From IMG/VR virus record IMGVR_UViG_3300021388_000002: a stretch of 64,000 nt of DNA. One strand, 5' to 3'. Source of the stretch: a virus. Lineage: Duplodnaviria; Heunggongvirae; Uroviricota; Caudoviricetes. The notes beneath the pieces were generated by a model that saw only the letters and a program-made list of their open reading frames with translations, was not told where the DNA came from and did not search any database. Shown piece after piece: positions 8,565 through 52,691 of the stretch. How positions within the stretch are numbered: the first letter of the stretch is position 1; each line of letters opens with the position of its first letter. Position numbers and translations under genes: made by a program.

Positions 8565-8794
8565 GCGGGGCACTGGCGCGGGAGCAGCGGCGCAGGCTCA
8601 CCACTCATGTCACCCAGGCACTGGCGGTGCTCATGGTAATCGCCACGCTCATCTCCCTGGCCACCGGGAGCAGCCCGTTCCGGGTATTCGCGTGGGTGGG
8701 CGGCGGCGGGGCAGCGGGCTGGGCGGCGGTCTGGGCCGCGGGCAGACGGCAGCGGGCGGAAATGTCAGACCCCGGTGATAGGCCTGAGTCATGA
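8561..8794 (+). CDS. small membrane protein
   Basis: hydrophobic segment LAVLMVIATLISLATG; ATGA coupling. Confidence 0.4.
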   Translation: MSGALAREQRRRLTTHVTQALAVLMVIATLISLATGSSPFRVFAWVGGGGAAGWAAVWAAGRRQRAEMSDPGDRPES

Positions 8795-11652: not shown

Positions 11653-11787
11653 AGCGTTGCACCCGCCGGAGTATTTAGTAGTACAGTTGCAGTCCCAGGC
11701 ACAGTCCCAGGATCAGGAACAGGTCACAGTGCACGACCCGCAGGAACCGCAGGACACTCCGCACAGCCCAGTGAAAGGAACAGGTCG

Positions 11788-16220: not shown

Positions 16221-16471
16221 GCGCACCAGCTGTCACCGGGGCGCCGGGCGGGCCGGTGCTGGAGGACCCGGCGGCTGAGCACGAGATCCAGCTGGCCGTG
16301 ACGTCACGGGCCGGCATCGGCGGGTTCATCACGGTGTCCTGCACCTGCCTGCCCCGGGGTACCGGGCGCGGGCGCCCGCGGCAGATCATTGAGGCTCGCA
16401 AGGTGTTCCCGGCCGCCGAGGCGGTCGCCACCTGGCGGGCCTGGCACACCGATAGGGGGATCGGGCTATGA
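16217..16471 (+). CDS. small hypothetical protein (GTG start)
   Basis: GTGA coupling. Confidence 0.35.
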   Translation: MSAPAVTGAPGGPVLEDPAAEHEIQLAVTSRAGIGGFITVSCTCLPRGTGRGRPRQIIEARKVFPAAEAVATWRAWHTDRGIGL

Positions 16472-21000: not shown

Positions 21001-23863
21001 GCCGTGCACGGTGGCCGAGGCAGCTCAGCTGGCCGGGGGCTACCTGGACGCGCTGTGCGTGGACGTGGAGCACTCGGGCTTCCCCATCGCCCACGCGGAT
21101 TACCGGCTGCGCCTGGTCCAGCTCGGCGGCGAGCACGTGGCCGCCGTGTTCGACCCGTCCGATGCGGCGCAGGCGGCTGCGATCGCGGACCTGCTCGGCC
21201 GGGCCCGCAAGCTGCACGCGCACTCGGCCGCGGCCGACCTGGTGCCGCTGGCCCATGCCGGGCTCGGTGACGCCGATGAGATGTGGGCGAAGATGGAGGA
21301 CTCGGTGCTGGTGACCAAGCTGGGCGATCCCAGCCTGGCCGGGTCGGACGAGAACGAGCTGAAGCGGCTGGCCGCCGGGCTGCTCGGGGACTACGCCGTC
21401 AGTCCCGCCGCGGAGAAGGCCAAGAACGAGCTGTTCAAAGACGGCCGGTGGCTGATCGAGACCAAGGCCATGACCCCGCGGGAGAAGTCCGGGTGGGCCA
21501 TGGTGAAGCCCGGGTGCGAGACGTTCGCCCGGTACGCCGGGTCCGACGTGCTGGACCTGGCCGCCGTGATCCGCACGCTGCCCCGGCCGGATGAGGCCAT
21601 CCTGGAGCGCGAGCGCACCTTCCAGGCCATGTGCGCCCGGGTCGCGCACACCGGGTTCCGGCTGCGCCCTGATCACATCCGGGCCAAGATCGCCGAGTTC
21701 GCCGGGCTCCGGGACGCCGCCCAGCGCCGGGTGCACGAGCTGTGCCCGGACATCATCAACCCGTCCAGCTCCCGGGAGGTCCCGGCCGCGCTGGCCGCCA
21801 TGGGCGTGCCGCTCGGGCTGACCAGGGAAGGCAACCCCTCGGCGTCCAAGGAAAACCTGGAGCTGCTGGCGAAGCAGAAGGATTACCCCCACGCGGAGCT
21901 GCTGGCCCAGATCCTTCAGTACCGGCACTGCGTGACCACGCTCGGGCTGCTGCTGGAGCCACTGAACGTGCTGTGCGAGCGGGGCGACGGACGGATGCGC
22001 CCGGTGGTCTACACGATCAACGCGGACACCGGGCGGACCAGCTGCGTGCGGCCAAACGGTCAGCAGTTCTCCCGGCAGGGCGGCATCCGGGCCTGCGTCG
22101 GCGCCGATCCCGGCATGATCGGCATCAGCGCCGACTTCTCCGGCGTGGAGATCCGGGTCGGGGCCGCGCTGAGCGGCGACATGGACCTGCTCGCCGCCGA
22201 GCTGTCCACCCGGTGCCAGGCGTGCGGGCAGGACCCGTGCGACATGACCGCCTGCGGGAAGAACCAGAAGGGGCTGCACTGGATGGCGGCCCGGATGGCA
22301 TTCGGCCCGGACGCGACCAAGGAAGGCCGCTACAACTCCAAGCGGATCATCTTCTGCGTGCCCGAGGACGGCACCGAGATCCTGACCCGGCGCGGCTGGC
22401 TGGCTCACGATCAGGTCCGGGCAGGCGATGAGACGCTGGGCCGGAATCCCGGAACCGGCTTGCTGGAGTGGACCCCAGTTACGGGTGTCCAGCACTTTGG
22501 TGAGGCTGAGCTGGTGCGGATCGCGAATAAGGATTCCGGCTGGGAGGCCGTGGTCACGCCTGGGCATCGCTGGGCGACTAGCAAGCGCCGTGATGGGGGC
22601 AGCCGCGGCCGGTATTTCGCTGAGGGGATGACTGAGACTCAGGATCTCAGCTGCGAGCACTCGCTGATCCTGGGTGCGCTCGCGGCAACGCCGGAGCAGC
22701 TGCCCATCACCCCGGCTGAGGCTGCGCTGATCGCCTGGGCCTATACGGACGGGCACGTGTTCCAGTCCCCGCTGACCGGGCGCACAAGCCAGGGCCGGGA
22801 TGGACGGCGCCGTAAGCTGCAGGTCAGTATCGCCCAGGCCAAGCCCGCTGGCGTTCACGCGCTGGAGAAGGTCCTGGCGGACTGCGGCGCTGATTTCGCA
22901 CGAGACGACAAGCCGCTGGATGGCAAGGACAAGCGCACGATGCCATCCTCGGTCTGGCGGCTCCGGACTGAATACGCCCGGGAACTGTGGGGCCGGGCTG
23001 GCCTGCTTGCCGTTGCGGGCAAGAACCTGCCCGGATTCGCGCTGGAGCAGTTTGTCCTGCGGCTGGGCACGGAACAGCGCGGCGCGTTCTTTCAGGCCTG
23101 CATGGATGCCGAAGGTTACCGGGATAGCAGGACAGGAGCCCCGCGCATCTCCCAGAATGCGGGGCCAGTCCTGGACGCTATCAAGCTGGCTGCAACCCTG
23201 GAGGGCTACTACGTCCGGGAACACGTGACGCGGTTTGCGCTCGGGACTGCCCCGCATAGCGTGCTCGTGCTGTCGCGCCCGCGGGTGGGCGGGACCAGGC
23301 TGCGTAAGGAACCGGCTGGGTCAGCGCCGGTCTGGTGCGTGACAACAGGGCACGGCACCTGGCTGATGCGCCAGAACGGCCGGATCATGCTTACCGGCAA
23401 CTCCAAGATGTTCGGCGGCGGCCCGAAGTCCGGTGCCGCCCAGGTCGGCCTGCCGCTGGCGGCGGGCATCGCGGTGCACAACGCGTTCGAGCAGATTGCC
23501 CCGGGCTTCGCCGAGTGGGACCGGCAGATGCGGGCCTACCTGGAGGCAGGCAACCGCGGGTTCACTGCCTACTCGGGCCGGACCATCTGGCTGCCTCGCG
23601 GCCGGAGCCACGCGGCCGGGAACTACGCCATCCAGGGCACCGCCCGGGAGATCCTGGTGGACGGCGTGCTGAAGTGGGGTCAGACCCGCTGGGGCGCCTA
23701 TCCGCTGCTGCCGATCCACGATGAAGTTCTCACGTTCGTGCCCGTGGCCGAGGCCGCCGAGGCGCTGGAGACGCTGAAGGCCTGCATGGCCAACGAGCTG
23801 TACGGCGTGCCGATCGTGGCCGCCGCCGACGAGCCGTTCGAGTTCTGGCCGGACAGCTCATGA
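18008..23863 (+). CDS. giant replication fusion protein: primase-polymerase + P4/D5-type SF3 helicase + 3'-5' exonuclease + family-A DNA polymerase (intein-interrupted)
   Basis: IGIDVDEY prim-pol; LLGESNTGKTQ Walker A; CVDVEHSGF exo I; ADFSGVEIRV motif A; PIHDEVL motif C; continuous 1951-codon frame. Confidence 0.75.
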   Translation: MTGAPAVYAAAVDAYLAAGWTCVIPVPPEAKFPPPAGFTGASGRDTGPADVARWVMATPGASIALRLPDGVIGIDVDEYAKGEAVKHGAATLAAKVADWGELPPTYSSTARGPGQPSRIMLYRVPAGVRFASVLGPDVEIIQRHHRYAVVAPSPHHGAGAPYAWYGPDGVALEHKIPRPEDLAELPPAWVTGLAEGASAAGPASAGREAAEALLAVIADQAGESATTCVSMDRARLAAIGACTGAERGSRHDAMTEHTYEVIMLAAEGHPGCTAVLGELAGLWNSLTAGEGREHEFWEMLTTAAGKAVTKLGGRAEPAGWDPCLMMNAVPYAAPTPDAGDGMAPDPVEPARVWSPFEVIGTEVFDPGADMDGLLARAVLHRTRPLIRYAADAGTWIARGPIHWEARSGDLGKWAVDLLSWLMRPGDPAADKGTPAETDARRRARFTTNASANAIAGKISAQVAAGYHPSTVELGELDGEHEILWAGGQPYDIRLSAAHPELSRVLDLGTPHLHSAGVVPETRETPLWDAFVAAVWPQPGLRAWALRVLSVAFTGYSDKALPILLGESNTGKTQLLVLLMSVLGSYAHVADARLLAPADRSHASIVYALKGRRLSFIDEAPRTGQLATERLKQITGGAELTGNQMGKNPITFMPTHTLILTANPEHEPVLTDAAIRSRVRLIPCDGNQAEVAAARAAIGALSGPAWRREAPGVLAKMLSEAAQWLEQPQTASNAEAPAEAAMAAEEVRASQDHVLGWLAEECESSERGTKGRELYVAFTESCRRMNVHPSAIPSETRWGRRLTELGYPSRHTNQGNIRQLRIRPPVPFTPGSYSPAAPHGAAVVLQPGPGEGLRPESEGLVHGSEASSQPFTEGETAGQTIHPTIHGEGLNSTQPYITHARTHTRTHMNGGANDPSPPSTVHLTPPQPETPLMPEAPEAGAASPPERDEPEPAQPAKKARKAPAKKPERVRPAPELEGPVHPLPVIVARNPAGGAPIVAPCTVAEAAQLAGGYLDALCVDVEHSGFPIAHADYRLRLVQLGGEHVAAVFDPSDAAQAAAIADLLGRARKLHAHSAAADLVPLAHAGLGDADEMWAKMEDSVLVTKLGDPSLAGSDENELKRLAAGLLGDYAVSPAAEKAKNELFKDGRWLIETKAMTPREKSGWAMVKPGCETFARYAGSDVLDLAAVIRTLPRPDEAILERERTFQAMCARVAHTGFRLRPDHIRAKIAEFAGLRDAAQRRVHELCPDIINPSSSREVPAALAAMGVPLGLTREGNPSASKENLELLAKQKDYPHAELLAQILQYRHCVTTLGLLLEPLNVLCERGDGRMRPVVYTINADTGRTSCVRPNGQQFSRQGGIRACVGADPGMIGISADFSGVEIRVGAALSGDMDLLAAELSTRCQACGQDPCDMTACGKNQKGLHWMAARMAFGPDATKEGRYNSKRIIFCVPEDGTEILTRRGWLAHDQVRAGDETLGRNPGTGLLEWTPVTGVQHFGEAELVRIANKDSGWEAVVTPGHRWATSKRRDGGSRGRYFAEGMTETQDLSCEHSLILGALAATPEQLPITPAEAALIAWAYTDGHVFQSPLTGRTSQGRDGRRRKLQVSIAQAKPAGVHALEKVLADCGADFARDDKPLDGKDKRTMPSSVWRLRTEYARELWGRAGLLAVAGKNLPGFALEQFVLRLGTEQRGAFFQACMDAEGYRDSRTGAPRISQNAGPVLDAIKLAATLEGYYVREHVTRFALGTAPHSVLVLSRPRVGGTRLRKEPAGSAPVWCVTTGHGTWLMRQNGRIMLTGNSKMFGGGPKSGAAQVGLPLAAGIAVHNAFEQIAPGFAEWDRQMRAYLEAGNRGFTAYSGRTIWLPRGRSHAAGNYAIQGTAREILVDGVLKWGQTRWGAYPLLPIHDEVLTFVPVAEAAEALETLKACMANELYGVPIVAAADEPFEFWPDSS
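20540..20780. promoter_or_regulatory. candidate replication origin-like island inside the replication gene linker
   Basis: local GC drop; GTGAAGGGTTG x3 direct, CAACCCTTCAC inverted, CAACTATTCAC x2; 32-nt alternating Pu/Py tract 20697-20728; TTATATAAC. Confidence 0.35.
22355..23401 (+). mobile_element. intein (349 aa) inside polymerase domain, with homing endonuclease-like middle
   Basis: CVPEDGTEILTRRG start after ...KRIIF; ends ...IMLTGN followed by Ser; in frame. Confidence 0.65.
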
Positions 23864-28274: not shown

Positions 28275-29204
28275 ATGACCGGAGCCGACGTCCCGGTGAT
28301 GTTCCGGGCCGGCCGCGGGCCTTCCGGCGCTGAGCCGGGCCAGCCCGATGTGCCCGCTGAGGCCGCGGGTGCCGCCACCTACCTGGCGGACATCAGCGAA
28401 TTCCAGCCTGACCTGGCCGATGCCGCTTACCTGAACTGGTCGAAGGCCATTGTCATCCGGGCCGCCTACGGCGACGCGCACGACGACGGCGCCTGGTACG
28501 GCGGCGCGCGCCGGGCTGACCTGCATGCCGGTGGCGTGAGGTTCCTGGGCATCTACCAGTACATCGTGGCGGGCCAGGACGCTGCCGCGCAGGCCCGTGC
28601 GCTGACCCGGCTGGTCGGCAGGCTGGAGGCCGGCGAGGTCATCATCGGGGACCTGGAGGAGGGCGCGGGGGATCAGGCCGGCCGGCGCGCCGCCTGGGAA
28701 GCCGTGATCACCGATGCGTACGGGGACCGGCCCTGGATCTATTCCGGGCTCGATTTCGCCGCCAGCCATGGCCTGGCCCCGGTGGACTGGGTGGCGGCCT
28801 ACCAGGCCAGCGAGCCGTCCGTGCCGCACCGGCTGTGGCAGTTCACCGATGGCTACGGCGTGCCCGGGGTGGGCCGGGCTGACTGCTCGGTGTTCCGCGG
28901 CAGTATCGCGGAGCTGGCCGCGCTCGCCCACGGCGGCACGCCCGTTCCCGCGCCAGCTCCCGCCCCCGCAACCGGATGGATGGCGACCGTCATGCCGAAC
29001 CCGCCCGTACTCGCCAGTGGCGCCAGCGGCGAGGACGTCCGCTCGGTGCAGGGCCTGCTGACCGCCCGTGGCTACGGGGTGGCCATAGACGGCAGTTACG
29101 GGCCCACGACCCGGGCCGCGGTGACCGCGCTCCAGCATGCCCGGGGCCTGGCCGCAGACGGCGTGGTGGGTCCCGACACCTGGGGCAAGCTGCTGAACCA
29201 GTAG
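28275..29204 (+). CDS. endolysin: GH25 muramidase + peptidoglycan-binding domain
   Basis: YLADISEFQ...GIYQY (GH25-like); C-terminal GEDVRSVQGLLTARGYGVAIDGSYGPTTRAAVTALQ (PG_binding_1). Confidence 0.8.
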   Translation: MTGADVPVMFRAGRGPSGAEPGQPDVPAEAAGAATYLADISEFQPDLADAAYLNWSKAIVIRAAYGDAHDDGAWYGGARRADLHAGGVRFLGIYQYIVAGQDAAAQARALTRLVGRLEAGEVIIGDLEEGAGDQAGRRAAWEAVITDAYGDRPWIYSGLDFAASHGLAPVDWVAAYQASEPSVPHRLWQFTDGYGVPGVGRADCSVFRGSIAELAALAHGGTPVPAPAPAPATGWMATVMPNPPVLASGASGEDVRSVQGLLTARGYGVAIDGSYGPTTRAAVTALQHARGLAADGVVGPDTWGKLLNQ

Positions 29205-29223
29205 CGCGCGCCGCTGCCCCGGG

Positions 29224-29239
29224 TACCGGGCGCCCGGAA
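29224..29239. repeat. degenerate copy of 16-bp palindrome (TACCGGGCGCCCGGAA) after endolysin gene
   Basis: 15/16 match. Confidence 0.4.
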
Positions 29240-29277
29240 CTTCTGGCCGCCGCATACCCCCCACGCGGGAAATACCC

Positions 29278-30048
29278 GTGCTGCGGGCGATTACGCAGCG
29301 CTTATCGACTTTGCGTAGTTATCCGGCTACGGTCGGTGCTATGCAGCGTTCCGCACAGCATGGCAGGGCCTACGGAACCGGGCTGGCCCTGCCGCCGGAC
29401 CTGGTCCTGCTCAGTGCCCTGTGGGGCGTGGTGCTGGACATCGGGGCCGTGCTCGACTCAGCCAGCCCGGACGTGGCCAAGGTCAGCGCCATCCGGTCCT
29501 ATATGCGGGACCAGCTGCCCGCGGCCCGGCCGCAGGTCCGCCGGGGGGACACCGCTCAGGACGTAGCGGCCATGATCGGCTCCCGGCTGATGTCCGGGAT
29601 GCTCGCCACCGACCTGTTCACCGCGCTGACCGGCCAGCCCGTGCATGTCGCGGTCCGCGAGCAGGAGGGCCGGCCGGCCACCGATGACGAGCGCGCCGAG
29701 CTGCGCTGGCCGGCGGGCACAGAGCTGTATGAGCGTTCCGGCCTGCTCATGGCCGGGTCCATCATCTGCGCCCGGGTCACGCTGCGGATCGTGTCCGACC
29801 CGGCCTGGCTGCCCGCGGGCGCGCTCGGCAAGATCCGCTCGGGCCAGCCGTGCGGCGGGGTGCTCGCCCCGTACGGGCTGCACCGGCCGTTCCGTGAGGT
29901 GAAGGTGTCCGCGGGCACCGGGCCGGCCGATCCCGGGCCGGGCGTGCTCGCGCGGGCCGTGCTGGCCCTGAACACTTCCCGGATCGGGATCGCCACCGAG
30001 GACGTGGGCGATGACATCTGCTACCGGCTGGCGGCGTATGGGCGCTAG
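29278..30048 (+). CDS. hypothetical protein (alternative start at 29341)
   Basis: ORF track. Confidence 0.4.
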   Translation: MLRAITQRLSTLRSYPATVGAMQRSAQHGRAYGTGLALPPDLVLLSALWGVVLDIGAVLDSASPDVAKVSAIRSYMRDQLPAARPQVRRGDTAQDVAAMIGSRLMSGMLATDLFTALTGQPVHVAVREQEGRPATDDERAELRWPAGTELYERSGLLMAGSIICARVTLRIVSDPAWLPAGALGKIRSGQPCGGVLAPYGLHRPFREVKVSAGTGPADPGPGVLARAVLALNTSRIGIATEDVGDDICYRLAAYGR

Positions 30049-30096
30049 CGGGGCCGCCGTGCGTATCCTGGGCCATGATGAGAGGGAGGGTGCCTG

Positions 30097-30231
30097 ATGC
30101 GCGCCTGGCACGCCGATGGCAGCGAATGCCACCACCGGGCCCACGCCTGCGGGCACACGATGTCCCTGGCGGGCCGGCTCCGGATGCGGTGGGCCCTGCG
30201 GCTGATGCGGCGCTCGCTCCGCCGTCTGTGA
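30097..30231 (+). CDS. small Cys/His-rich protein (44 aa)
   Basis: GAGGGAGGGTGCCTG ATG; ECHHRAHACGH. Confidence 0.4.
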   Translation: MRAWHADGSECHHRAHACGHTMSLAGRLRMRWALRLMRRSLRRL

Positions 30232-30456
30232 CCGCCCGGCCGGTTATGAGGATCTGCATATTGATCACGATCATGCCTGCTGTGATTATGTGGCTATGGG
30301 CTATCACCGGGCCCGGAGCTGTGCCGGTTGCGTTCGCGGGGCTTTGTGTGACAGGCACAACACCATCGCGGCTGGGCTGGAAAGCCCGGACGCGATGCAG
30401 GTGCTCGACTATCTGCTTTGCACCAGGTCGTCGGCGCCATTGCCGCTATCCTGGTC

Positions 30457-31115
30457 GCGTGGTCTCACCACGGGGGCATAGATGGGAGCAGTACGCACGG
30501 GGGGTAATCGCCTATTACGGCGGTCTCTGCCACCTGTGCGGTTTAGGCCATGGCGGCGCCCGCCAGGTAGACCACCTGGAAGTGGTGGCCGAGCATCCTG
30601 AGCTGGCCTGGAAGCTGTCCAACTGCCGCCCGGCGCACGGTGCGCCTGGCAACCGCTGCCCGCAGTGCTCGGCCGCCGCGGGCCGGTCCATCTTCTGCAA
30701 CCAGATCCGCGGCGCCCTGTCGGCCGGGAGAGCCCGCAAGATCATCGCGGAGCTGACCGCGGGTGGCGCTGCCCGCCCCGCGGCCCGGCCGGGGCCAGAC
30801 CGCGAGGCGGGCCGCCCGTGGTTACGCGCAGCAGCAGAAGTGGCGGCACCGGCCGCTGTCGCATTTGCGGGCGCTGCAGCCAGGCCGGTGATTGCCCATG
30901 ACGCCGCCGCACTTGGTGCAGACCAGGTCGCGGGCGCGGGCATAGATCCTGCGCATGGTGCTGTCTCCTGTTCTCTGGGTGGTGCTGGCCGGGTCAGCCG
31001 TGCCGCTGGCTCCCGGTGTTCACCTTCACGATCCGGGGCATGGCAGCGACTGCCAGTTCCTGCGCCTGGGCTGGGAACAGCCCGCTGTCGCGCAGGGCGT
31101 CCAGCAGGTTTGTGA
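30457..31115 (+). pseudogene. HNH endonuclease (core near 30520-30730); no ATG start, no stop before 31115; 3' part antisense to two minus-strand genes
   Basis: YYGGLCHLCG..VDHLEVV..HPELA..N..PAHGAPGNRCPQC..CN (two CxxC + HNH His/Asn). Confidence 0.35.
30824..30956 (-). CDS. small Cys-rich protein (44 aa)
   Basis: GAACAGGAGACAGCACC ATG; CTKCGG..C..C..CCC. Confidence 0.4.
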
Positions 31116-31158
31116 TGTCGGCGACGATGTCTCCGATCTCAGCCTCGGTCAGGGCCAT
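30994..31158 (-). CDS. small hypothetical protein (54 aa)
   Basis: GAGAGGAGGTGATCCC ATG. Confidence 0.4.
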   Translation of the reverse strand: MALTEAEIGDIVADITNLLDALRDSGLFPAQAQELAVAAMPRIVKVNTGSQRHG

Positions 31159-31217
31159 GGGATCACCTCCTCTCGTGTGCGGGGGCGGGGCGCGGCCTCC
31201 TGGCCGTGTTCCGTGGG

Positions 31218-31475
31218 TCAGCCGCTGCTGTCCTGGCCGTTGCCCGGGACGCCGCCGAGAGGCCGCCGTACGCCGCCGTGCGGGGTGTAATGCGCAGGCA
31301 GCCCCTCGCGGCCATGCCGTGTCCGTGCCACCTCGGCGGCCAGCGCGGGCGGCAGCCCGTCCGGGATTGTGCCAGCCTGCTCCAGCGCCGCCCAGAGCCG
31401 GCCCGCGTAGCTGGGCGGCGCGCCTGGCGTGCACCGGGACACGGCTGCCCGCAGCTGATCGATCGTGATGTCCAT
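31218..31475 (-). CDS. hypothetical protein
   Basis: AGCAGGAAACAGCAC ATG. Confidence 0.45.
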   Translation of the reverse strand: MDITIDQLRAAVSRCTPGAPPSYAGRLWAALEQAGTIPDGLPPALAAEVARTRHGREGLPAHYTPHGGVRRPLGGVPGNGQDSSG

Positions 31476-31501
31476 GTGCTGTTTCCTGCTCTCTGGGCGG
31501 G

Positions 31502-32494
31502 TTATTTGCCGGAGCTGACAATCACCCCGTTGCCTGTGCCGCTGAAGTTGCACATCCCGATGGTCGGGGTCTGGCCGGCCTTGATCATGTCCTGCATCAG
31601 GTCCAGGCAGCGCGAGATCAGGACGTCGGGATTGTTGCTGACCGAGGCCGCGATGGCCCGGTTGGCCGCCGCCTGGGCGTCAGCAGTCTGCTCGGCCAGG
31701 ATTGCCGCCTGGGTGGCGGACTTCTGCTGGAGGATGGAGTTGATCCGCTGCTGCACCGAGTCGGGGTAGACGATGTTCGGGATGTTCACCAGGTCCAGGG
31801 TGACTTCTGACCCGATCATGCGGTTGAGCAGGGTCTGGACCTGCGCGGCCAGCTGGGGCACGGACGGGTTGCCCGTCTGGCCGACCGGGATCTTGCTCGA
31901 CAGCAGTGCTACCGGGTCGTAGTCCCCGAAAACCGTGTTGGCTGCGGTCTGGAGGGCCGGGATCACGACCCCGTTCTCGACTCCGGACGTGGAGCCCTTG
32001 TACCGCTTGAACAGGCTGGTGGCGTCGTGCGGGTTGAGCTGCCAGCGGACCCCGACTTTGGCGCATGCGGTCTGGCCGTCCGCCAGCCGGAGCTGGACAT
32101 CACAGCTGGCTGCGGTGAAGTCAGTTACCTGCACCGAGTAGTCCATCTCGGACAGGTTCTCCCAGGGCGCCGTCCACTGCGGGCCGTTGCTGACCTCGCC
32201 GATTGGCCGGCCGAAGCTGGTGATGATGCCGACGTTGCTGGTGCCGACGACCCAGAAGCTGGAGGCGAGCAGGCATAGTGCCGTCAGGCCCCCGGCGGTC
32301 AGCGTGGCGGCCTTAGCCCAGGGCCGGATGGCGGCTGGGGTGTCTTCCGCCATGGCGTACCGGTCGCGTGCGGCGTTGCGGGACTGGGCCGCTGCCGCCC
32401 GGTGCTGATCGGTTTTGATGGTGATGCGCCAGGTGATTGCTGCCGCGAGGGTGATGATCCCGAGGAAGATCGCGAGGTAGAAGGTCAGTTGCAT
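31502..32494 (-). CDS. SPFH/band-7 (stomatin/prohibitin/HflC-like) membrane protein
   Basis: N-terminal TM then IITSFGRPIGEV...DVQLRLADGQ; long C-terminal coiled-coil-like region. Confidence 0.7.
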   Translation of the reverse strand: MQLTFYLAIFLGIITLAAAITWRITIKTDQHRAAAAQSRNAARDRYAMAEDTPAAIRPWAKAATLTAGGLTALCLLASSFWVVGTSNVGIITSFGRPIGEVSNGPQWTAPWENLSEMDYSVQVTDFTAASCDVQLRLADGQTACAKVGVRWQLNPHDATSLFKRYKGSTSGVENGVVIPALQTAANTVFGDYDPVALLSSKIPVGQTGNPSVPQLAAQVQTLLNRMIGSEVTLDLVNIPNIVYPDSVQQRINSILQQKSATQAAILAEQTADAQAAANRAIAASVSNNPDVLISRCLDLMQDMIKAGQTPTIGMCNFSGTGNGVIVSSGK

Positions 32495-32547
32495 GGGTCA
32501 CTCCGTTTCGTTCCAGGTGCGGATGGGTGCGTGAGGCTGGGAGTTTG

Positions 32548-32826
32548 TTACAGCAGCGCGCCCAGGATCTTGCTGAGCGCGCCCACGATGGCGCCCATCA
32601 GCATCAGGAGCGAGACCAGCAGGAACGCGGTGCCGCCGCCGATGGGAGGCATCGCGCGCCACCAGTCCCGGTGCGCGATCCCCACGACGTTGGTCGCCAG
32701 GATGCTGAGCGTCACGTTGGCCGCGATGATCAGGGCCAGGATTCTGATGGCGCTGCCAGCGCCGCTGGTCCGGCGGTAGCGGCGGCGGGCCAGGGCGATC
32801 CGCTCGCGGCCGGTGATGTTGCTCAT
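32548..32826 (-). CDS. small two-TM membrane protein immediately upstream of SPFH gene (NfeD-like partner position)
   Basis: CAGGAGAG SD; hydrophobic helices ILALIIAANVTLSILATNVV / FLLVSLLMLMGAIVGAL. Confidence 0.5.
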   Translation of the reverse strand: MSNITGRERIALARRRYRRTSGAGSAIRILALIIAANVTLSILATNVVGIAHRDWWRAMPPIGGGTAFLLVSLLMLMGAIVGALSKILGALL

Positions 32827-32846
32827 GATGGGCTCTCCTGTTCTGG

Positions 32847-33164
32847 TCAGGCTCCGGGCAGCAGCTCGTGCGGGCGGCTGCCTTCGGCCAGGTGATTGAG
32901 AAGGATCTTCACAGCCAGGGCGCTGGCCTCGGCCGGGGTGTACTGGGCGCCCTCCGTCTGCTCCAGGCAGGCGCACAGCACCTCCAGCACGGCAGGCGCT
33001 TGCGGGGCCGCGTCCAGCTCAGCTGCGACCCGGGCGAACTCAGCGTGCAGGGGTTTCAGCTGCGGGTTCACGTCCGCCCAGCGTTTCAGCTCGCTGACCA
33101 GGTAGCGCAGCTGGGATTGCGGCGGCTGGCGGGCAGCCAGCTCAGCGGCGTGGCTGTAGCTCAT
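32847..33164 (-). CDS. hypothetical protein
   Basis: CAGGAAAACCAGAC ATG. Confidence 0.45.
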   Translation of the reverse strand: MSYSHAAELAARQPPQSQLRYLVSELKRWADVNPQLKPLHAEFARVAAELDAAPQAPAVLEVLCACLEQTEGAQYTPAEASALAVKILLNHLAEGSRPHELLPGA

Positions 33165-33192
33165 GTCTGGTTTTCCTGTTCTGAAGTAGTGG

Positions 33193-34038
33193 TCAGGCCC
33201 AGAAGTCATCTGCTGCCCGGGCGGGCTGAACCCGGACGTCGATCGTGCCGATGCCGGACTGGTGACTGCGCAGGGTGCGCGTGACCGTATCGACCCGGAT
33301 GCTCCCGATGCCAGAGACGTCCAGGTCAGCGTCAGCGGCTGTACCGCCGAACCTGATCGATCCCGTGCCGGACACGGATGCGCGCAGGTCTTCCACCATG
33401 CCTTTCCGCACGGTGACTGAGCCGGTGCCGGAGATGTCCGCGCGCAGCTGCTCGGCTACCCAGGCAGCCTCCAGGTCAGCCGCGCCGCTGATGTCCACAT
33501 TCAGCGCCGCCAGCGTCCCGGCTGTGACTGAGCCTGCGCCTTTCAGCCGCGCGTTCAGTGTGCCGCCGATGTTGCCCAGCCGGTAGATGCCATCGCTGTG
33601 ATCCGTGATGCCGATGGACGCCCTGGCAGGCACGTGCACGGTCAGGCGTACCGGTTCCGCAGCCTCGCCGCTGGCGCTGCTGGGGCTGACAACCTGGCCG
33701 TCCACGACCACCCGGCGGCGCCCGCCGCCCGTGCTGATATCGCTGCCGGAGATATAAGTCCCGCCGCCGCGCCCGAAGACGTTGATCCCGGACACCATGT
33801 CGCCGATGACGACCTGGCCGCCACCGCCACGGATCATGATGCCGCCGCCGTTGCGCGGGCCCCTGATGTGCAGGACGCCGGCGTCAGTGCTGTGGCTGAT
33901 GTCCTTCAGGGCATCCTCGGGGCCGGTCAGCTCGAAACTGATGCCGGGTTCGTTCCAGGTGTCTACCTGGACTGTGCCCGGGATGCTGGTCAGCAGCAGG
34001 TTCCGGGCTGCCCGGATGGTTTTGCTGCGTTCCGTCAT
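33193..34038 (-). CDS. DUF2807/DUF4097-like beta-helix (GIN-domain, putative adhesin-head-like) protein
   Basis: repeated ..SGxGSV/I.. strands (ISGTGSVTV, VSGTGSIRF, VSGIGSIRV); CAGGAGAC SD. Confidence 0.6.
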   Translation of the reverse strand: MTERSKTIRAARNLLLTSIPGTVQVDTWNEPGISFELTGPEDALKDISHSTDAGVLHIRGPRNGGGIMIRGGGGQVVIGDMVSGINVFGRGGGTYISGSDISTGGGRRRVVVDGQVVSPSSASGEAAEPVRLTVHVPARASIGITDHSDGIYRLGNIGGTLNARLKGAGSVTAGTLAALNVDISGAADLEAAWVAEQLRADISGTGSVTVRKGMVEDLRASVSGTGSIRFGGTAADADLDVSGIGSIRVDTVTRTLRSHQSGIGTIDVRVQPARAADDFWA

Positions 34039-34370
34039 GACGAGGTCTCCTGTTCTGTGCTGGCGGCCGGCGGGATCTCGGTGAACCCGCCCAGCCGCTC
34101 CATGATGCGGATGAAGTTGTTCCGGTAGCCGAAGCTGTCGTAGTACCCGCGGCAGATCGCGCCGCCGGTCTCCGGGTGCGGCCCGTAGCTGAGCGTCTGG
34201 TGGCAGATGATGCCCTGGCAGCCTTCCCGGGTGGCGTCCCGCACTAGGGACCGGAGCGCGCCTGGCCGCAGGTCCATTGGGTTGCCAGGCCGGAAGATGC
34301 AGGTGCTGCACTGCTCAGCCATCAGCTGCGGGCGCCGGGTGACTGGATTGAAGCAGTTTTCCCCGCTCAT
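34035..34370 (-). CDS. Cys-containing hypothetical protein
   Basis: ATGA coupling. Confidence 0.4.
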   Translation of the reverse strand: MSGENCFNPVTRRPQLMAEQCSTCIFRPGNPMDLRPGALRSLVRDATREGCQGIICHQTLSYGPHPETGGAICRGYYDSFGYRNNFIRIMERLGGFTEIPPAASTEQETSS

Positions 34371-34699
34371 GACGGCAGCTCGTTGCTGTCCCGGGTGCGG
34401 CCTTCCGCTGCCCGGCCGTACGTGCGGGAGCCGTCCCGCTCGCGCAGCTCTGTGCAGTCTTCGGGCAGCACGCCGTACCTGGCCCGGTACAGCCGGAACC
34501 AGTCCACGATGGCCTCGCTCTCGCTGGCGCCGAAGCCGTAGAGGGGGCTGATGCCTGATGTGACCTCGGTCCGGCGTACCGCGAAGATCTGGCCGGGGCT
34601 GGGCGGCAGGGTGAACGCCCCGTCACGCTCGTGGGCCTGCCCGGTTAGCACGGTGACCAGGAACGTGGTGCCGCCGTAGCTGACGGTCGTGGTGGTCAT
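34367..34699 (-). CDS. hypothetical protein
   Basis: GAACAGGAGACCCCTTC ATG. Confidence 0.45.
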   Translation of the reverse strand: MTTTTVSYGGTTFLVTVLTGQAHERDGAFTLPPSPGQIFAVRRTEVTSGISPLYGFGASESEAIVDWFRLYRARYGVLPEDCTELRERDGSRTYGRAAEGRTRDSNELPS

Positions 34700-34962
34700 G
34701 AAGGGGTCTCCTGTTCTGTGGTGGTGTTTAGCCAGGCGTTAGCTGGGGGCGTGCCGTCTGGCTCGTGGATGACAACCTGGATGCGCTCTGGCACCTGGCC
34801 GAATTCCGCAACCAGCTCATCGCTGCTCAGGGCAGCCCGGATGGTGATGCCCAGCTCGGTGTGGCCATAGACCGCCTCGCCCCGGGAGTGGCCGAGAGGC
34901 GGCAGGCCGTAGACGTCCCGGGAGTAGCCGATGAGAGGCAGGTTGTAGACGAGGCTGGCCAT
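34696..34962 (-). CDS. hypothetical protein with internal repeat (IGYSRDVYGLPPLGHSRGEAVYG)
   Basis: TGATG coupling. Confidence 0.4.
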   Translation of the reverse strand: MASLVYNLPLIGYSRDVYGLPPLGHSRGEAVYGHTELGITIRAALSSDELVAEFGQVPERIQVVIHEPDGTPPANAWLNTTTEQETPS

Positions 34963-35207
34963 CAGATCGCCAGCTCGATGTACGGTTCGTCCGTCATCAC
35001 GAACTTGCTGCGGTCGCCGCTGCGGTCGTGGGTCCGCCAGGTGACCGTCTTCACGCAGCCCGCGATGTTTGCCGGGTCGCCCGGCCCGTACGGCGGGTGG
35101 AAGATGTAGTCGCCCACGCGCGGGACCGGGTACGGCCATTCCGGCATGTCCACGATCAGCTCGTGGCCCTGGATGATGCGCAGGTGCACGGTGGTGGTCT
35201 CATTCAT
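34962..35207 (-). CDS. hypothetical protein
   Basis: CAGGAGACAGAAGATC ATG. Confidence 0.45.
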   Translation of the reverse strand: MNETTTVHLRIIQGHELIVDMPEWPYPVPRVGDYIFHPPYGPGDPANIAGCVKTVTWRTHDRSGDRSKFVMTDEPYIELAI

Positions 35208-35424
35208 GATCTTCTGTCTCCTGATCGCTGGCCGCAGATTCCTCCCTGGTGCCGATCCGGGCGAGCCGGTCCAGCCGTGCGGTCAGCGCCGCCAGCGCCG
35301 CCGTGCTTTCGCGGTAGTCCAGGTGCAGGATCACCGTGTCGGGTGTGGCAGCCATGGCGCTGGTGATGCCCGCTTCGCGGAACTGGCGGGTCAGCTTCAG
35401 GGCGGGGGTGTCGTTACGGGGCAT
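35200..35424 (-). CDS. hypothetical protein
   Basis: palindrome + GAACAGGAGATC...ATG upstream. Confidence 0.45.
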   Translation of the reverse strand: MPRNDTPALKLTRQFREAGITSAMAATPDTVILHLDYRESTAALAALTARLDRLARIGTREESAASDQETEDHE

Positions 35425-35447
35425 GAGTGATGATCTCCTGTTCTTCC

Positions 35448-35463
35448 GGGCGCCCGGAATTTT
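35448..35463. promoter_or_regulatory. 16-bp palindrome TTCCGGGCGCCCGGAA, copy 1
   Basis: intergenic, directly 5' of SD of gene 35200..35424. Confidence 0.6.
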
Positions 35464-35469
35464 CAGTTC

Positions 35470-35865
35470 TCAGCCTGCGCTGTCGCTGCCACAGGGCGGC
35501 CGGTTGATGCTGGTGACCGGGCGCTGCCGCCAGAACCCGGCCGGCTTGCGGGTGCGCCGGGCCGCGAAGTCCACGTGCGTGACCTGATCGGGAGCCGGCT
35601 CGGGCGGCCCGGCGGCGGGGATGAGCACGACGCCGTTGTCTGTGATGTCCTTGCCGTGCTCGTAGACCCGGATGACCCGGGTGACCCGGCCGCGCGTGAC
35701 CGTGACGACCTGGCGGGCCGCATAGCCCGGGTCGCCCGACAGGTGCAGGGCCTCTGACAGGGCCTCGCCCATCCCGCCGAGGTTGTCGTTGTAGTAGCAG
35801 GGCTTTCCCGGCTCAAGGCCGGGCTCAACCGCGTAGTAGCTGCCCACCCGGGCCGTCGCCGTCAT
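35470..35865 (-). CDS. hypothetical protein
   Basis: GAACAGGAGACACC ATG. Confidence 0.45.
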   Translation of the reverse strand: MTATARVGSYYAVEPGLEPGKPCYYNDNLGGMGEALSEALHLSGDPGYAARQVVTVTRGRVTRVIRVYEHGKDITDNGVVLIPAAGPPEPAPDQVTHVDFAARRTRKPAGFWRQRPVTSINRPPCGSDSAG

Positions 35866-36266
35866 GGTGTCTCCTGTTCGTGAGTATGCGGCTGGAGGTC
35901 GTTGCAGTCGGGGCAGAGCCCGTACAGGGCCCGGATCAGCCGCAGGTCCAGGTTGCCGGGCTCGGCCGGCGGCACGCATGCGGCGGTGTGCTCGCCGTGC
36001 CCGTGCCAGGGGTTCGTGCAGTAGACCCGGCTCCCGGGTCCTGGTGCGCTCACCGGGCTCGCACCTGCGCGGGCTGCGGCCAGGCCGTGAGCGCGGCCAT
36101 CACCATGCAGCCTTCCCGGTGCCCGCGCAGGTACGTGAAGGTGGCGTCCAGGGAGGGCGTCACCATGGGCCGGGGTGGCAGCCCTGCGATGCCCGTGGTG
36201 AACCCGAGCCGGTATTCCGAAGCCGTCTCGCCTGGGCTGCCGTGCCGGCGCGTGCTCATGTGACAT
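35862..36266 (-). CDS. hypothetical protein; two overlapping minus frames (35862..36266 and 36050..36259) suggest frameshift or two genes
   Basis: ORF track; C-terminal part CTNPWHGHGEH...CPDCNDL plausible. Confidence 0.3.
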   Translation of the reverse strand: MSHEHAPARQPRRDGFGIPARVHHGHRRAATPAHGDALPGRHLHVPARAPGRLHGDGRAHGLAAARAGASPVSAPGPGSRVYCTNPWHGHGEHTAACVPPAEPGNLDLRLIRALYGLCPDCNDLQPHTHEQETP

Positions 36267-36506: not shown

Positions 36507-37088
36507 TCAGGCTCCCTTCATGGTCAGGTACCAGCGGATGGTGCCGGGCGGGTCCCACTCGCTGGTTTCATCGCACGCCAGCCCCGCGGCCTTCATCCGG
36601 TCCAGCTCGGCTTGCACGGTGCCCGGGTGGTGGCGGGCCCGGTTCGCGAGCTGTGTGCTGGTCATCCGCGGGCTGGCTGGCCCGCCCGATGGTCCCATCA
36701 GGTGGGCGGTGATCTGGCGGCGCAGCGTGGCGCTGAAATCTGCCTCGTGCGCCCAGTCCGCGCCGCCGCCCAGGGTGATCACCGGCTCGCCGCAGGTCTC
36801 GCAGGTGCCGCGCAGCGGGTACTCGCCTGGCTGCGCGCCCGCCGTGATCAGCCTGCCGTTCTTCGTGCGCAGGTTGCCGCTCATCGGGTGCGGGCTGTGC
36901 GCCGGGACCTCCGGCGGGGCGATCCGCAGCTGGTAGACGCTCTCGATGTGCGCCGTGTCCTCGCGGTACCGGCGCAGCTCGGATTCGATGTTGCTCAGGT
37001 GATTCCTGGTCGCCTGGGCCAGCAGATCGTGCCGCTCAGCCTCGGCGGCCAGGATGATCTCCTCGCGGGTGGGATTGCTGGTGCTCAT
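36507..37088 (-). CDS. hypothetical protein with C-terminal winged-helix-like segment
   Basis: GAACAGGAGACACAGCG ATG. Confidence 0.5.
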   Translation of the reverse strand: MSTSNPTREEIILAAEAERHDLLAQATRNHLSNIESELRRYREDTAHIESVYQLRIAPPEVPAHSPHPMSGNLRTKNGRLITAGAQPGEYPLRGTCETCGEPVITLGGGADWAHEADFSATLRRQITAHLMGPSGGPASPRMTSTQLANRARHHPGTVQAELDRMKAAGLACDETSEWDPPGTIRWYLTMKGA

Positions 37089-37363
37089 CGCTGTGTCTCC
37101 TGTTCTGGTGTGATGGTGCCCATCTCGGCGGCTGTCCAGCGCTGGAACAGCCGGCCGCCGCTGGGCTCGCCGCGCAGTACCCGGACGCCCGGGATACGGG
37201 CAGCCTGCTCAGCCAGCCGGGCAGGGATCTGGTAGTAGCAGCCGTGCGGCCAGCCGTGCTCCGGCCAGATGCCGTACTCGCGGCCGGGGTCGCGCACGAC
37301 GCGGCGCAGGCGGTCCCGGCTGCGGTGGCTGGTGGTGGATACCCAGACCGCGGGCTCCGTCAT
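37085..37363 (-). CDS. hypothetical protein
   Basis: CAGGAGACCTC ATG. Confidence 0.45.
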   Translation of the reverse strand: MTEPAVWVSTTSHRSRDRLRRVVRDPGREYGIWPEHGWPHGCYYQIPARLAEQAARIPGVRVLRGEPSGGRLFQRWTAAEMGTITPEQETQR

Positions 37364-39041: not shown

Positions 39042-40451
39042 CTAGCGCGGTGCCGTGGCCGCCATCATCGCGACCGTGGGCAGGCTGGACCCGTGCGCCA
39101 GGGGCGCTGCCGGGAGGGTGACCGGCTCGGCCGTGGCCGGTGCCAGGCTGTCCAGCTCGGCCGGCACGGTGCCCGGCTTGAACTGGGCCAGCACGTCCTC
39201 GCCCGTGACCGCGCCGCTGGCGACGGCAGCGCTCATCCGGGCGGCGTGCACCACGACCAGCGGGTGCTTGCCGATCAGGACCGGCGGGCTGGCGTTCTCA
39301 GCCATCGGGTCGCAGCTGCTGCCCGGGGTGGCTGGGCAGTCCGGGCAGGGCGCTGCCAGCAGCGTGCCGGTCAGCTCTGCCCGCTCGGCCGCGTCCTGCT
39401 CCTGCTCCGTCCCGGTGGTGAACTGGCCGTGCCGCGGGCGCTGGCGGATGCCGTTCCGCTTGCGCGGGCGCTGCGGGATGGGCTCCGCGGCCGGCAGCGC
39501 TGGCGGTGCCGCGTCCGTCTCGCCCGGCAGCCGCAGGCCACCCGTGGACGCCTGGTCATCGGCGCGCAGCCGCACCGTAGCCGAGGTCACCCAGATGGGC
39601 GGCGCGTCCGGCAGCGGCTCGCCGGTCTCCGGGTCGGTGTCCGGCTGGTGCCACCCGATCGGCTCGATGGTGTACGCGAACGAGTCCGGCAGCGGCCCGC
39701 ACTTGACCTTCTCCGCGATCACCGTGGCCGACCGGCTGCCGTCCGTGCTCTCCAGGTCTGGCTCGATCCCGAACACGAAGTCCGAGGAAGCGAACAGCCG
39801 GGAGCCGGGCAGGCGCTGCGGCTCGTTGCCGCGCCCGCCGTTCGGGTGCGCGATCGCGATTACCAGGCAGTCCAGCTGGGCCGACAGCCACTTCATCCCG
39901 AGCATGAACCGGTTGGCGCTGGTGTCGTTAGCCAGCGACAGGCCGCCGAAGTCCGCCGCGCTGTCCAGGATGACCAGCTCCAGGTCCGGCAGCTGGCCCA
40001 TCTCGGTCGCCGCCCGGCGCAGCGCCCGCGTCGGCTCCATCTGCGGGCTGACCGGCACCGCGAACGCCTCCGTCATGAACTTCAGCCGCACGTCGGTGTA
40101 GGGCGGCTGGGCCGCCAGCCACGCATCGGCCGCCGCCTGGCCGTCCCGGCGGGCGATCTCGGCCGCCCGCGCCATCCGGTCATGCTGCTCGCGGATCAGC
40201 CGGGCCTGCTTGCGGACTCCCGCGTCGTACAGGCCCTCACCGAGGCAGTACGCGACCATGCCCCGGATGGTCGCCCGGCCGAGGAACGGGGTGCCGTTGG
40301 CGACCGCCAGGCCCAGTTCCTGGCCGATCACCAGGGACTTGCCGTAGTACGACGGCCCGTAGACGAACCCCACGCCCACCCGGGGGAACAGCCCCTCGAC
40401 CAGGAAGTCCGGCGGGGTGATGTCCAGGTCGTCAGCGTTGATCAGAGGCAT
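39042..40451 (-). CDS. AAA_25-type RecA-like ATPase (RepA/DnaB-like fold)
   Basis: GFVYGPSYYGKS Walker A; VILDSAADF Walker B-like. Confidence 0.65.
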   Translation of the reverse strand: MPLINADDLDITPPDFLVEGLFPRVGVGFVYGPSYYGKSLVIGQELGLAVANGTPFLGRATIRGMVAYCLGEGLYDAGVRKQARLIREQHDRMARAAEIARRDGQAAADAWLAAQPPYTDVRLKFMTEAFAVPVSPQMEPTRALRRAATEMGQLPDLELVILDSAADFGGLSLANDTSANRFMLGMKWLSAQLDCLVIAIAHPNGGRGNEPQRLPGSRLFASSDFVFGIEPDLESTDGSRSATVIAEKVKCGPLPDSFAYTIEPIGWHQPDTDPETGEPLPDAPPIWVTSATVRLRADDQASTGGLRLPGETDAAPPALPAAEPIPQRPRKRNGIRQRPRHGQFTTGTEQEQDAAERAELTGTLLAAPCPDCPATPGSSCDPMAENASPPVLIGKHPLVVVHAARMSAAVASGAVTGEDVLAQFKPGTVPAELDSLAPATAEPVTLPAAPLAHGSSLPTVAMMAATAPR

Positions 40452-40584
40452 GTCCTGTCTCCTGTTCTGTGAAATCGTGCGGCGGGGTCCGTGCGTACAC
40501 GATGACCGCCGCGAGTGCGGTGCCGAACGCGCCCGCGCCCAGCAGGGCGCAGCCCGCGATGAGCAGGGCGTGGATCACGCGCGC

Positions 40585-42023: not shown

Positions 42024-42241
42024 CCGATCCTCACATCCAGCTCAGCCAGCACGACGTCGTAGGTGTCGCCGTCGTCTGCCTGGGCGGACGTGTCTTTCCA
42101 CGAGAGCTGCGTGCCGCCACCCTCGTCCTCGTCCTCTATCTCCTGGGCGGCGGCCCTGGCCTTCTCCTTGGTGCTGAACGCGCCGATGACCTGGGAGATG
42201 CCGCGCCCGGCCGGGTCGCAGACTGTGATGTAGACGTTCAT
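42020..42241 (-). CDS. small acidic hypothetical protein
   Basis: CAGGAAGGAAG SD. Confidence 0.45.
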   Translation of the reverse strand: MNVYITVCDPAGRGISQVIGAFSTKEKARAAAQEIEDEDEGGGTQLSWKDTSAQADDGDTYDVVLAELDVRIG

Positions 42242-42693
42242 GCGGCAGCTTCCTTCCTGAGCGTGTAGACCTGGCCGTGCACGGGCTTGCTGCGGTCGCC
42301 GTCGATGACCAGCAGCCCGGCCTGGCCGCGCGCGACCGCTGGGCCGGGGCCATCGGACTTGTGCCGGCGGATTCGCCAGGCTGTGCTGCCGAGGCCGTTA
42401 TCCGCCACGATCCGGGCCAGCCACTCGCGGGTGGCCAGGTGGCCATCATCGGCTTGGCCGAACGAGACCGCATTCGGGGTGAGCCGGGCGATGCGCAGCC
42501 TGTACAGGTACACGTCGTAGACCTCGTGCCCGGGACCGCCTGGCCGCCGCTCGTGGATGGTGACCGTCCGGCCGACCGGGGCGTAGCGCCAGCCTTCTGG
42601 GTGCAGGCGCCAGTGCTTGCGGACGTACGCGGCCAGGCCGTCATAGGTCAGTTCTGGTGTGTCCGCGGGGAAGCGGAAGTAGTACTGAGGCAT
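42238..42693 (-). CDS. hypothetical protein
   Basis: GAACAGGAGAGCTGACCC ATG. Confidence 0.5.
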   Translation of the reverse strand: MPQYYFRFPADTPELTYDGLAAYVRKHWRLHPEGWRYAPVGRTVTIHERRPGGPGHEVYDVYLYRLRIARLTPNAVSFGQADDGHLATREWLARIVADNGLGSTAWRIRRHKSDGPGPAVARGQAGLLVIDGDRSKPVHGQVYTLRKEAAA

Positions 42694-52660: not shown

Positions 52661-52691
52661 GTGTGTCTCCTGTTCTGCTGTGGCCGGGAAG

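Follow-up and report, generated by a model that had tools for sequence, protein, structure and literature searches.

How should one read a phage locus in which a gene for an SPFH/Band-7 membrane protein and a gene for a Toastrack (DUF2807/GIN-type) beta-helix protein lie in one short run with two small genes between them? The question is raised by positions 31,502 to 34,370 of a 64,000-nucleotide stretch of the IMG/VR virus record IMGVR_UViG_3300021388_000002 (Caudoviricetes), the whole of which is called the window here, where consecutive minus-strand genes encode proteins of 330 (SPFH), 92, 105 and 281 (Toastrack) residues. A first-pass annotation, made from the letters of the sequence and its open reading frames (ORFs), had read these genes as a membrane module, with an NfeD-like partner for the SPFH protein and a link to Psp/Lia envelope-stress proteins, and knew of no described phage system of this kind. 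The comparison with relatives set out below points elsewhere. The region is probably a set of evolutionarily independent accessory genes within a minus-strand block of small genes that is itself probably polycistronic, not a dedicated multi-protein system, and the adjacency of the genes in this single genome would reflect mosaic gene flux rather than a conserved partnership.

Co-conservation carries this argument. We fetched the contigs holding P0010, P0013, P0020, P0029 and P0008 with 10 kb on either side of the SPFH gene, added 22 IMG/VR loci, and ran family profiles against the ORFs of the window and of 38 loci, 39 sequences in total (639 kb). The SPFH profile matched 36 loci and the Toastrack profile matched the window, L007 and L012 only, the two sets overlapping in the window alone: 0 of the 36 SPFH loci has a Toastrack gene and 0 of the two Toastrack loci has an SPFH gene. 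A further 107 Toastrack-matching loci (1.35 Mb), among which only L066, L067 and L068 contain full-length relatives, gave no match to the SPFH profile, which is specific for the phage family, so that the zero count in the 102 more distant loci is silent on generic bacterial Band-7 proteins. Counted as distinct loci, about 25 carry SPFH relatives, with a Toastrack gene, the 92-residue protein or the 105-residue protein nearby in none of them, and none of the five full-length Toastrack loci (L007, L012, L066, L067 and L068; 27-48% identity) has an SPFH-family gene. The six Toastrack loci, window included, share no neighbour within 4 kb on either side, and tblastn of the 92-, 105- and 111-residue proteins (the last from a fifth gene, described below) against L001-L013 and the five Toastrack loci returned nothing. 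The genes of the proposed membrane module are not co-conserved in the relatives examined, the outcome that the first-pass annotation had itself set against its module. One apparent exception, a 4606-bp contig listed for both P0029 (SPFH) and P0047 (DUF2807), proved to be a coincidence of length, the P0029 contig having no DUF2807 gene.

What is conserved around the SPFH gene lies on either side of the segment in question. When all window genes between 24 and 45 kb were compared by tblastn with L001-L013, the SPFH, lysin and HNH genes recurred in L003, L013 and L001, loci from contigs of 149.7, 38 and 77 kb respectively, together with the genes at 35862-36266, 36507-37088, 39042-40451 and 42238-42693; the 92-residue, 105-residue, Toastrack, 111-residue and 110-residue genes were never found in those relatives. 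The conserved order runs from PolA to the lysin and the HNH gene, with the SPFH gene converging on them from the other strand, and the stretch from 32548 to about 35860 is a variable segment. In both L003 and L013 the lysin is 51-52% identical to that of the window and convergent to the SPFH gene, and the HNH copy is 54-55% identical and in the same position. A small two-helix gene stands beside the SPFH gene in 3 of about 20 distinct loci, at differing positions and without mutual homology. The convergent arrangement of lysin and HNH gene towards the SPFH gene (window 28275-31115, plus strand) is kept in three divergent lineages, represented by the window, L003 (11118-12746) and L013 (11187-12594), and in the window an additional 256-residue gene (29278-30048) separates the lysin from the HNH gene.

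The genes themselves are sound. All four were confirmed as ORFs (Table 1), and their starts are well supported, because GC3 (the G+C content of third codon positions) collapses upstream of them and because a Shine-Dalgarno-containing motif precedes three of them. GC3 is 0.83-0.96 inside the genes as first delimited (0.96 for the 92-residue and 0.88 for the 111-residue gene) against 0.47-0.56 in the upstream ORF extensions, and the motif CAGAACAGGAGA, or a variant with one mismatch, lies 8-9 nt 5' of the 92-, 105- and 281-residue genes. Allowing up to two mismatches, CAGAACAGGAGA occurs 30 times in the window against an expected 3.0 +/- 1.6, with most sites in the minus strand from 30.9 to 54 kb, and it looks like a phage-specific strong ribosome-binding site (RBS) of the minus-strand small-gene block. 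Its minus-strand sites extend from 30964 to 53981 and stand before ATG codons (for example at 32834-32845, 34046-34057, 34707-34718, 37096-37107, 40458-40469 and 52666-52677); because the genes abut, the motif is also translated, as '...EQET..', in the C-terminal tails of many upstream proteins. The window has about 70% G+C, and nearly all credible genes between 30.9 and 55.3 kb are minus-strand, small, tightly packed and high in GC3. The fifth gene within 31502-34370, which the first-pass annotation had left out of its list, encodes the 111-residue protein, and its stop overlaps the start of the 281-residue gene by 4 bp. The gaps among the 330-, 92-, 105- and 281-residue genes measure 20-53 bp and no minus-strand terminator-like site was found between them; together with the overlap, these features make co-transcription likely.

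The 330-residue protein was rightly assigned to the SPFH family. Pfam Band_7 (PF01145) matches its residues 82-269 with E=2.8e-16 (60.5 bits; cut-off 23.6) and PHROG 200 matches residues 2-314 with E=5.4e-41. The first-pass annotation had given it an N-terminal transmembrane (TM) helix; such a helix is present, but hydropathy indicates two rather than one, at about residues 3-21 (TM1) and 62-83 (TM2), separated by a basic loop and followed by the SPFH domain (82-243), a long helix (245-285), a helix at 289-305 and a Cys-containing tail. An AlphaFold2 model calculated with 20 homologues (predicted local distance difference test score, pLDDT, 78.2) has the same architecture: a pair of helices at the N-terminus leads into an alpha/beta SPFH domain, which is followed by a 40-residue helix and one more helix. 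In Foldseek the model retrieved HflK first (7vhq_E, E=4e-10), then prohibitin, HflC and erlin, and next stomatin, QmcA (rank 21) and flotillin. Since phmmer against PDB sequences found nothing and the family profile reached HflK only at an insignificant E=0.13, the link to HflK comes from the comparison of folds.

Within phages, the protein belongs to a family that is far from new. SPFH homologues were found by tblastn in 356 phage records (257 from Mycobacterium, 78 from Streptomyces, 15 from Gordonia and 5 from Rhodococcus), where they are mostly annotated as 'band-7-like membrane protein' and sometimes as 'lipoprotein'; with PHROG 200 covering these annotated actinophage genes, the earlier statement that no such phage system had been described does not hold for its SPFH part. 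Over the SPFH domain and the coiled-coil region the window protein shares 23-40% identity with members of this actinophage family, examples of which are gp30 of Mycobacterium phage Astraea, LeBron gp49, gp136 of Streptomyces phage Moab and prophiGD17-1 gp28; about 40% is the most that any deposited phage homologue attains. It has in common with PHROG 200 members the two N-terminal helices, the SPFH domain, the long helix, the C-terminal Cys pair, and surroundings of small non-structural genes of large actinophages. It differs from them in a longer basic loop between the helices, a feature that its relatives from metagenomes (35-63% identity by alignment) share, and most of this metagenomic group add a Cys131/Cys144 pair. 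The relatives of metagenomic origin number 30, at 36-66% identity; a single-sequence pattern scan of genome contigs with the SPFH protein gave no confirmed relatives. The homologues are common in Mycobacterium abscessus prophages and no less so in large lytic actinophages, among them the ~155-kb Bixzunavirus group, and their neighbourhoods vary from tRNAs and an RNA ligase (Moab) to small hypothetical genes (Astraea) or an exonuclease and RtcB (prophiGD17-1). SPFH genes have also been annotated in the Vi01-like phage PhiSH19 and in Stenotrophomonas phage DLP5, and LeBron gp49 ('NKF; TMD, Band-7-like') had a mild cytotoxicity score of 1 on overexpression (PMC13148394). The protein of the window is thus a new and divergent, otherwise ordinary, member of the known actinophage 'band-7-like membrane protein' family. 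As a side observation, a 54-residue ORF with a strong RBS lies 3' of the SPFH gene (30994-31158, minus strand) and weakly resembles (43% over 44 residues, E=0.01) a 67-residue gene directly 5' of the SPFH gene of L003 (9760-9963); it may be a small conserved SPFH neighbour that switched sides, to judge from this sequence match. A 44-residue Cys-rich ORF at 30822-30956 also has the RBS motif.

The family alignment suggests how the protein may sit in the membrane. The first helix is conserved and has an uncharged N-terminus, the second runs straight into the SPFH domain, and the loop between them is variable and rich in Arg and Lys (8 K/R against 4 D/E in the window protein). Cys131 and Cys144 are both present in 14 of 20 sequences and both absent in the other 6 (counting P0022, in which the first Cys falls one alignment column to the side), and Cys296 is invariant and always accompanied by a second Cys near 315, a C-terminal pair that the more remote phage members Astraea gp30, Moab gp136 and prophiGD17-1 gp28 have as well. 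Both the positive-inside rule and the way in which the cysteines covary, like disulfide partners, would lead us to place the N-terminus outside, the inter-helix loop in the cytoplasm, and the SPFH domain, stabilised by disulfides, on the cell-wall side. The SPFH domains of HflK, prohibitin and erlin are all non-cytosolic, those of HflK/C being periplasmic, and the ranking of these three above stomatin and flotillin in the model-based search is weakly consistent with an SPFH domain outside the membrane.

The cages formed by HflK/HflC with FtsH in E. coli, by prohibitin and by erlin gave the best structural matches (7vhq, 9cz2, 8rrh and 9vvg). The order of membrane anchor, SPFH domain and long wall-forming helix is like theirs, and the predicted non-cytoplasmic orientation would match that of HflK/C, whereas the window contains a single SPFH-family ORF by the family profile, with no second paralogous subunit in its 64 kb and hence no K/C pair, and its product has two N-terminal helices instead of one. 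Most likely, the protein would oligomerise during infection into a cage of the HflK/C or prohibitin kind, attached to the host membrane from outside, and would fence in membrane proteins there. Its most plausible clients would be a host FtsH-type protease, proposed because of the HflK/C analogy, or envelope and lysis proteins, proposed because of the recurring position of the gene opposite the lysin.

The beta-helix assignment of the 281-residue protein also stands, with a match to Pfam DUF2807 (PF10988) at E=2.2e-10 (41 bits; cut-off 24.2). The profile of its family matched structural-genomics DUF2807 proteins in the PDB, namely 3lyc (1.4e-14), 4opw (1.1e-8), 3jx8 and 3pet over a range of E=1e-14 to 1e-8, and also 3ljy; an AlphaFold2 model (pLDDT 78.8) shows a beta-helix in which residues 65-125 make up a Gly-rich insert of low confidence, and its best Foldseek matches were 3PET, 3LYC, 4OPW and 4QRK. 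Both 4OPW and 4QRK are structures that served to define the Toastrack domain, which unites DUF2807, DUF4097 and DUF2154 (PMC11237479). By hydropathy the protein has no signal peptide, TM helix or hydrophobic segment, and five relatives likewise lack a signal peptide and a TM helix; on this account, and in keeping with the proposal that Toastrack domains are intracellular (PMC11237479), its sequence predicts a cytoplasmic protein. It resembles LiaG, the C-terminus of LiaF and PspC-Toastrack fusions in its DUF2807 and 4opw profile matches, in its Foldseek matches to 4opw and 4qrk and in its lack of a signal peptide, yet unlike these it stands alone, with no fused PspC, LiaI-LiaF-TM or SHOCT domain. 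Nor do its neighbours bear out the Psp/Lia link of the first-pass annotation, since Pfam detected no PspA, PspC, LiaI-LiaF-TM, two-component or PadR regulator in the 7 block proteins and 30 other window proteins scanned, and the compartments predicted for the SPFH and Toastrack domains differ.

Phage relatives of the Toastrack protein are few. A tblastn search of 50,697 phage genomes returned nothing for it, and pattern and profile scans of IMG/VR viral contigs with its sequence and alignment gave no confirmed relatives. Among 5.8 billion proteins there are only six close relatives (45-49% identity), all from metagenomic assemblies, which share the N-terminus without a signal peptide, the Gly-rich insert and a C-terminal D-x-F-W motif; the insert of about 60 residues and the motif set them apart from other Toastrack proteins and are confined to a handful of metagenomic phage-like actinobacterial contigs. 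One Toastrack locus, L007, carries Phage_L5_gp82 and DNA methyltransferases in a prophage-like setting, and a DUF2807-like protein with no assigned role has been noted in megaphage G. Genome-contig matches to the Toastrack alignment (Caulobacter, Flavobacteriaceae and similar metagenome-assembled genomes) covered only part of the C-terminal beta-helix and are not members of the subfamily. The Toastrack gene is therefore a mildly unusual, solitary acquisition and the rarer item of the two. Its product would be a cytoplasmic beta-helix scaffold that the phage gained singly in a variable stretch of its genome; like its bacterial counterparts, it probably presents a flat surface beneath the membrane on which other proteins can dock. 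In Actinobacteria, Toastrack is often found fused to SHOCT-like domains (PMC11237479), and one window gene (16468-17247, plus strand) does have a 259-residue product that combines a DUF1707/SHOCT-like domain (E=1e-16) with a hydrophobic helix at its C-terminus; we discarded a link, this gene lying 16 kb from the Toastrack gene on the opposite strand and having no homologue in the fetched loci.

The small proteins add no common thread. Hydropathy peaks at residues 26-44 and 59-84 confirm the 92-residue protein as a two-helix membrane protein, and there the agreement with the first-pass annotation ends: the expected NfeD domain (PF01957) gave no match even at E<=1, the only hit being a sub-threshold DUF3701 (15.6 bits against 26.9), and a protein of 92 residues with two helices has no room for an OB fold. 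Its sole homologue among 5.8 billion proteins is itself, which makes this hairpin a lineage-specific ORFan. Neither it nor the 105-residue protein has a credible family in Pfam, PHROG, NCBIfam or PADLOC. The latter, in which hydropathy finds no hydrophobic helix, was matched in an exhaustive phmmer search by 26 other cluster representatives, all over residues 1 to ~60 only, where they share an N-terminal domain of about 55 residues with the motif 'MSYxHAxEL...LxYLVxELxxWAxLNPxLxxLHxEF'; their C-termini vary, some being Cys-rich and zinc-ribbon-like. No Pfam or PHROG family covers this domain, and in the SPFH and Toastrack loci there is no relative of the protein except for one unrelated C-terminal match. 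The 111-residue protein has a weak match to PHROG 5443 (E=5.8e-5) and no homologue was found next to Toastrack relatives. We regard the 92- and 105-residue genes as lineage-specific filler.

These results can be set against the idea that the SPFH protein, the 92-residue hairpin, Toastrack and perhaps the 105-residue protein form one phage membrane machine, in which the hairpin is an NfeD-like small protein and Toastrack a sub-membrane platform, acting in superinfection exclusion, lysis timing or membrane remodelling. What speaks for it is that the genes follow one another on one strand, with short gaps and a common RBS motif, that bacterial Band-7 and Toastrack domains both partner the PSP envelope-stress network (PMC11237479), and that, as in SPFH-NfeD operons such as E. 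coli QmcA-YbbJ (PDB 8z5g), whose QmcA is among the structural matches, a small membrane-protein gene directly precedes the SPFH gene. We consider this machine quite improbable all the same, for its genes are co-conserved in no relative examined, its 92-residue component has no NfeD/OB-fold domain or homologue, and the pairing of such a component with the SPFH gene is not kept in relatives, the two-helix neighbours of the few SPFH loci that have one being non-homologous and variable in position; PADLOC also matches none of its parts. A direct contact between SPFH and Toastrack without a bridging membrane protein is unlikely because the predicted compartments differ, with the SPFH domain outside and Toastrack inside, a gap that a hairpin membrane protein could in principle bridge. 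Lysis control is a somewhat different proposal, in which the SPFH protein, alone or with the hairpin as a class II-like holin or antiholin, would tune the timing of lysis with the convergent GH25 endolysin. It draws on the order of lysin, HNH and SPFH genes kept in the window, L003 and L013, on the hydropathy of the window proteins, which reveals no obvious holin-like membrane protein beside the lysin and very few membrane proteins altogether, and on the small-holin size and N-in/C-in hairpin layout of the 92-residue protein. We judge it unlikely: the SPFH and lysin genes are on opposite strands and in separate transcription units, the lysin of L001 is some 9 kb from its SPFH gene, the SPFH genes of Moab, Astraea and prophiGD17-1 have tRNA, RNA ligase or replication genes around them but no lysin close by, the relatives that keep SPFH and lysin genes are without the 92-residue protein, and the charged region of that protein is N-terminal instead of C-terminal.

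That the genes are moron-type defence or superinfection-exclusion genes protecting the host of a prophage is more doubtful again. The frequency of SPFH homologues in Mycobacterium abscessus prophages would fit, as would the annotated superinfection exclusion gene that adjoins the SPFH gene of PhiSH19; but the family is just as common in the large lytic actinophages, the genes lie within a long same-strand block with replication-type genes and not by an integrase or repressor, none of the six proteins compared with PADLOC-DB v2 matched at E<=0.1, and literature searches gave no experimental support. Least probable of all, in our estimate, is that the Toastrack subfamily, present in phage-like actinobacterial contigs only, mimics the host LiaF/PspC-type platform and blunts or hijacks envelope-stress signalling, in this phage as part of a lineage-specific assembly that spans the membrane and includes the co-transcribed 92-residue hairpin and an SPFH cage facing outward. 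Several points weigh against the reading of independent accessory genes. It draws on about 25 distinct SPFH loci and five full-length Toastrack loci, many of them on short metagenomic contigs, and the arrangement might recur in some rare sub-lineage. Moreover, the tight packing and the common RBS motif mean that the genes are almost certainly co-expressed, and their products may therefore interact functionally in this lineage. Literature searches on the function of phage band-7/SPFH proteins found annotations and the overexpression toxicity of LeBron gp49, and the SPFH topology is predicted from hydropathy, charge and cysteine patterns.

Independent accessory genes nonetheless remain our preferred reading, and the interpretation as a conserved novel phage membrane system is not supported, because the genes stand in this order only once, in a mosaic region, and because the SPFH family is annotated in hundreds of actinophages. 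The interest of the locus lies in its single members. For the large and conserved actinophage band-7-like family, the predicted outward-facing, disulfide-stabilised, HflK/prohibitin-like topology provides a concrete hypothesis, to which the position of the SPFH gene beside the lysin, recurrent in one lineage, adds. The rarity of Toastrack in phages marks its subfamily as a candidate means for phages to interfere with the envelope-stress signalling of their hosts.

Table 1 Features of the SPFH-Toastrack region and its convergent neighbours, in window coordinates
Feature	Coordinates	Strand	Basis
SPFH/Band-7 membrane protein gene, 330 aa	31502..32494	-	ORF; Pfam Band_7, PHROG 200
Two-helix membrane protein gene, 92 aa, basic N-terminus	32548..32826	-	ORF and hydropathy; ORFan
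Soluble protein gene, 105 aa	32847..33164	-	ORF; N-terminal ~55-residue domain
Toastrack (DUF2807/GIN-type) single-stranded beta-helix protein gene, 281 aa	33193..34038	-	Pfam DUF2807, fold
Cys-rich protein gene, 111 aa	34035..34370	-	ORF; weak PHROG 5443 match
GH25 + PG_binding_1 endolysin	28275..29204	+	Pfam PG_binding_1 E=2.4e-16, Glyco_hydro_25 E=7.8e-7
HNH endonuclease segment, boundaries uncertain	30468..30830	+	PHROG 144 HNH E=1.5e-5; between lysin and SPFH gene

The wider setting agrees with the phage-like small-gene context of the first-pass annotation, with replication genes, a lysin, an HNH gene and many small genes, and the element is a large high-GC actinobacterial phage. Proteins identical to those of the window are recorded from one 164.6-kb contig, although look-ups of contigs by the exact sequences of the window's SPFH and Toastrack proteins, and of the identical P0001, gave no record. 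In addition, blastn of positions 30000-36000 against the 50,697 deposited phage genomes found no nucleotide-level relative for that segment. The plus-strand genes upstream are phage genes of replication type, which encode an exonuclease with a LAGLIDADG intein, an SNF2 helicase, a PrimPol-helicase-PolA fusion, HD, Vsr-like and DUF1643 proteins, the GH25 + PG_binding_1 lysin, whose gene converges on the SPFH operon, and the HNH endonuclease, whose open frame has a GC3 of only ~0.68.

Some minor features of these flanks deserve mention. The exonuclease (8791-11652, plus strand) is a 953-residue phage protein (PHROG 1674, E=2e-47) split by a LAGLIDADG homing-endonuclease/intein-like insert, which matches Pfam LAGLIDADG_3 at E=8e-11 and, weakly, Intein_splicing. 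At 18008-23863 (plus strand), a single polypeptide of 1951 residues joins Prim-Pol to a DUF5906 helicase-like region and to a DNA polymerase of family A, and the equivalent position in L003 and L013 is occupied by DUF3854 + PolA proteins of 1489-1500 residues. The sole ARAGORN call, a 93-nt tRNA-Gly(GCC) at 39163-39255 (minus strand), lies inside the gene for an AAA_25/zinc-finger protein (39042-40451) and was disregarded as a probable false positive. Finally, the 185-kb phage-like contig L009 carries two pairs of an IS200/IS605-type Y1 transposase and OrfB/TnpB, at 11097-12740 and 18776-20419, one of which lies directly 3' of its SPFH gene.

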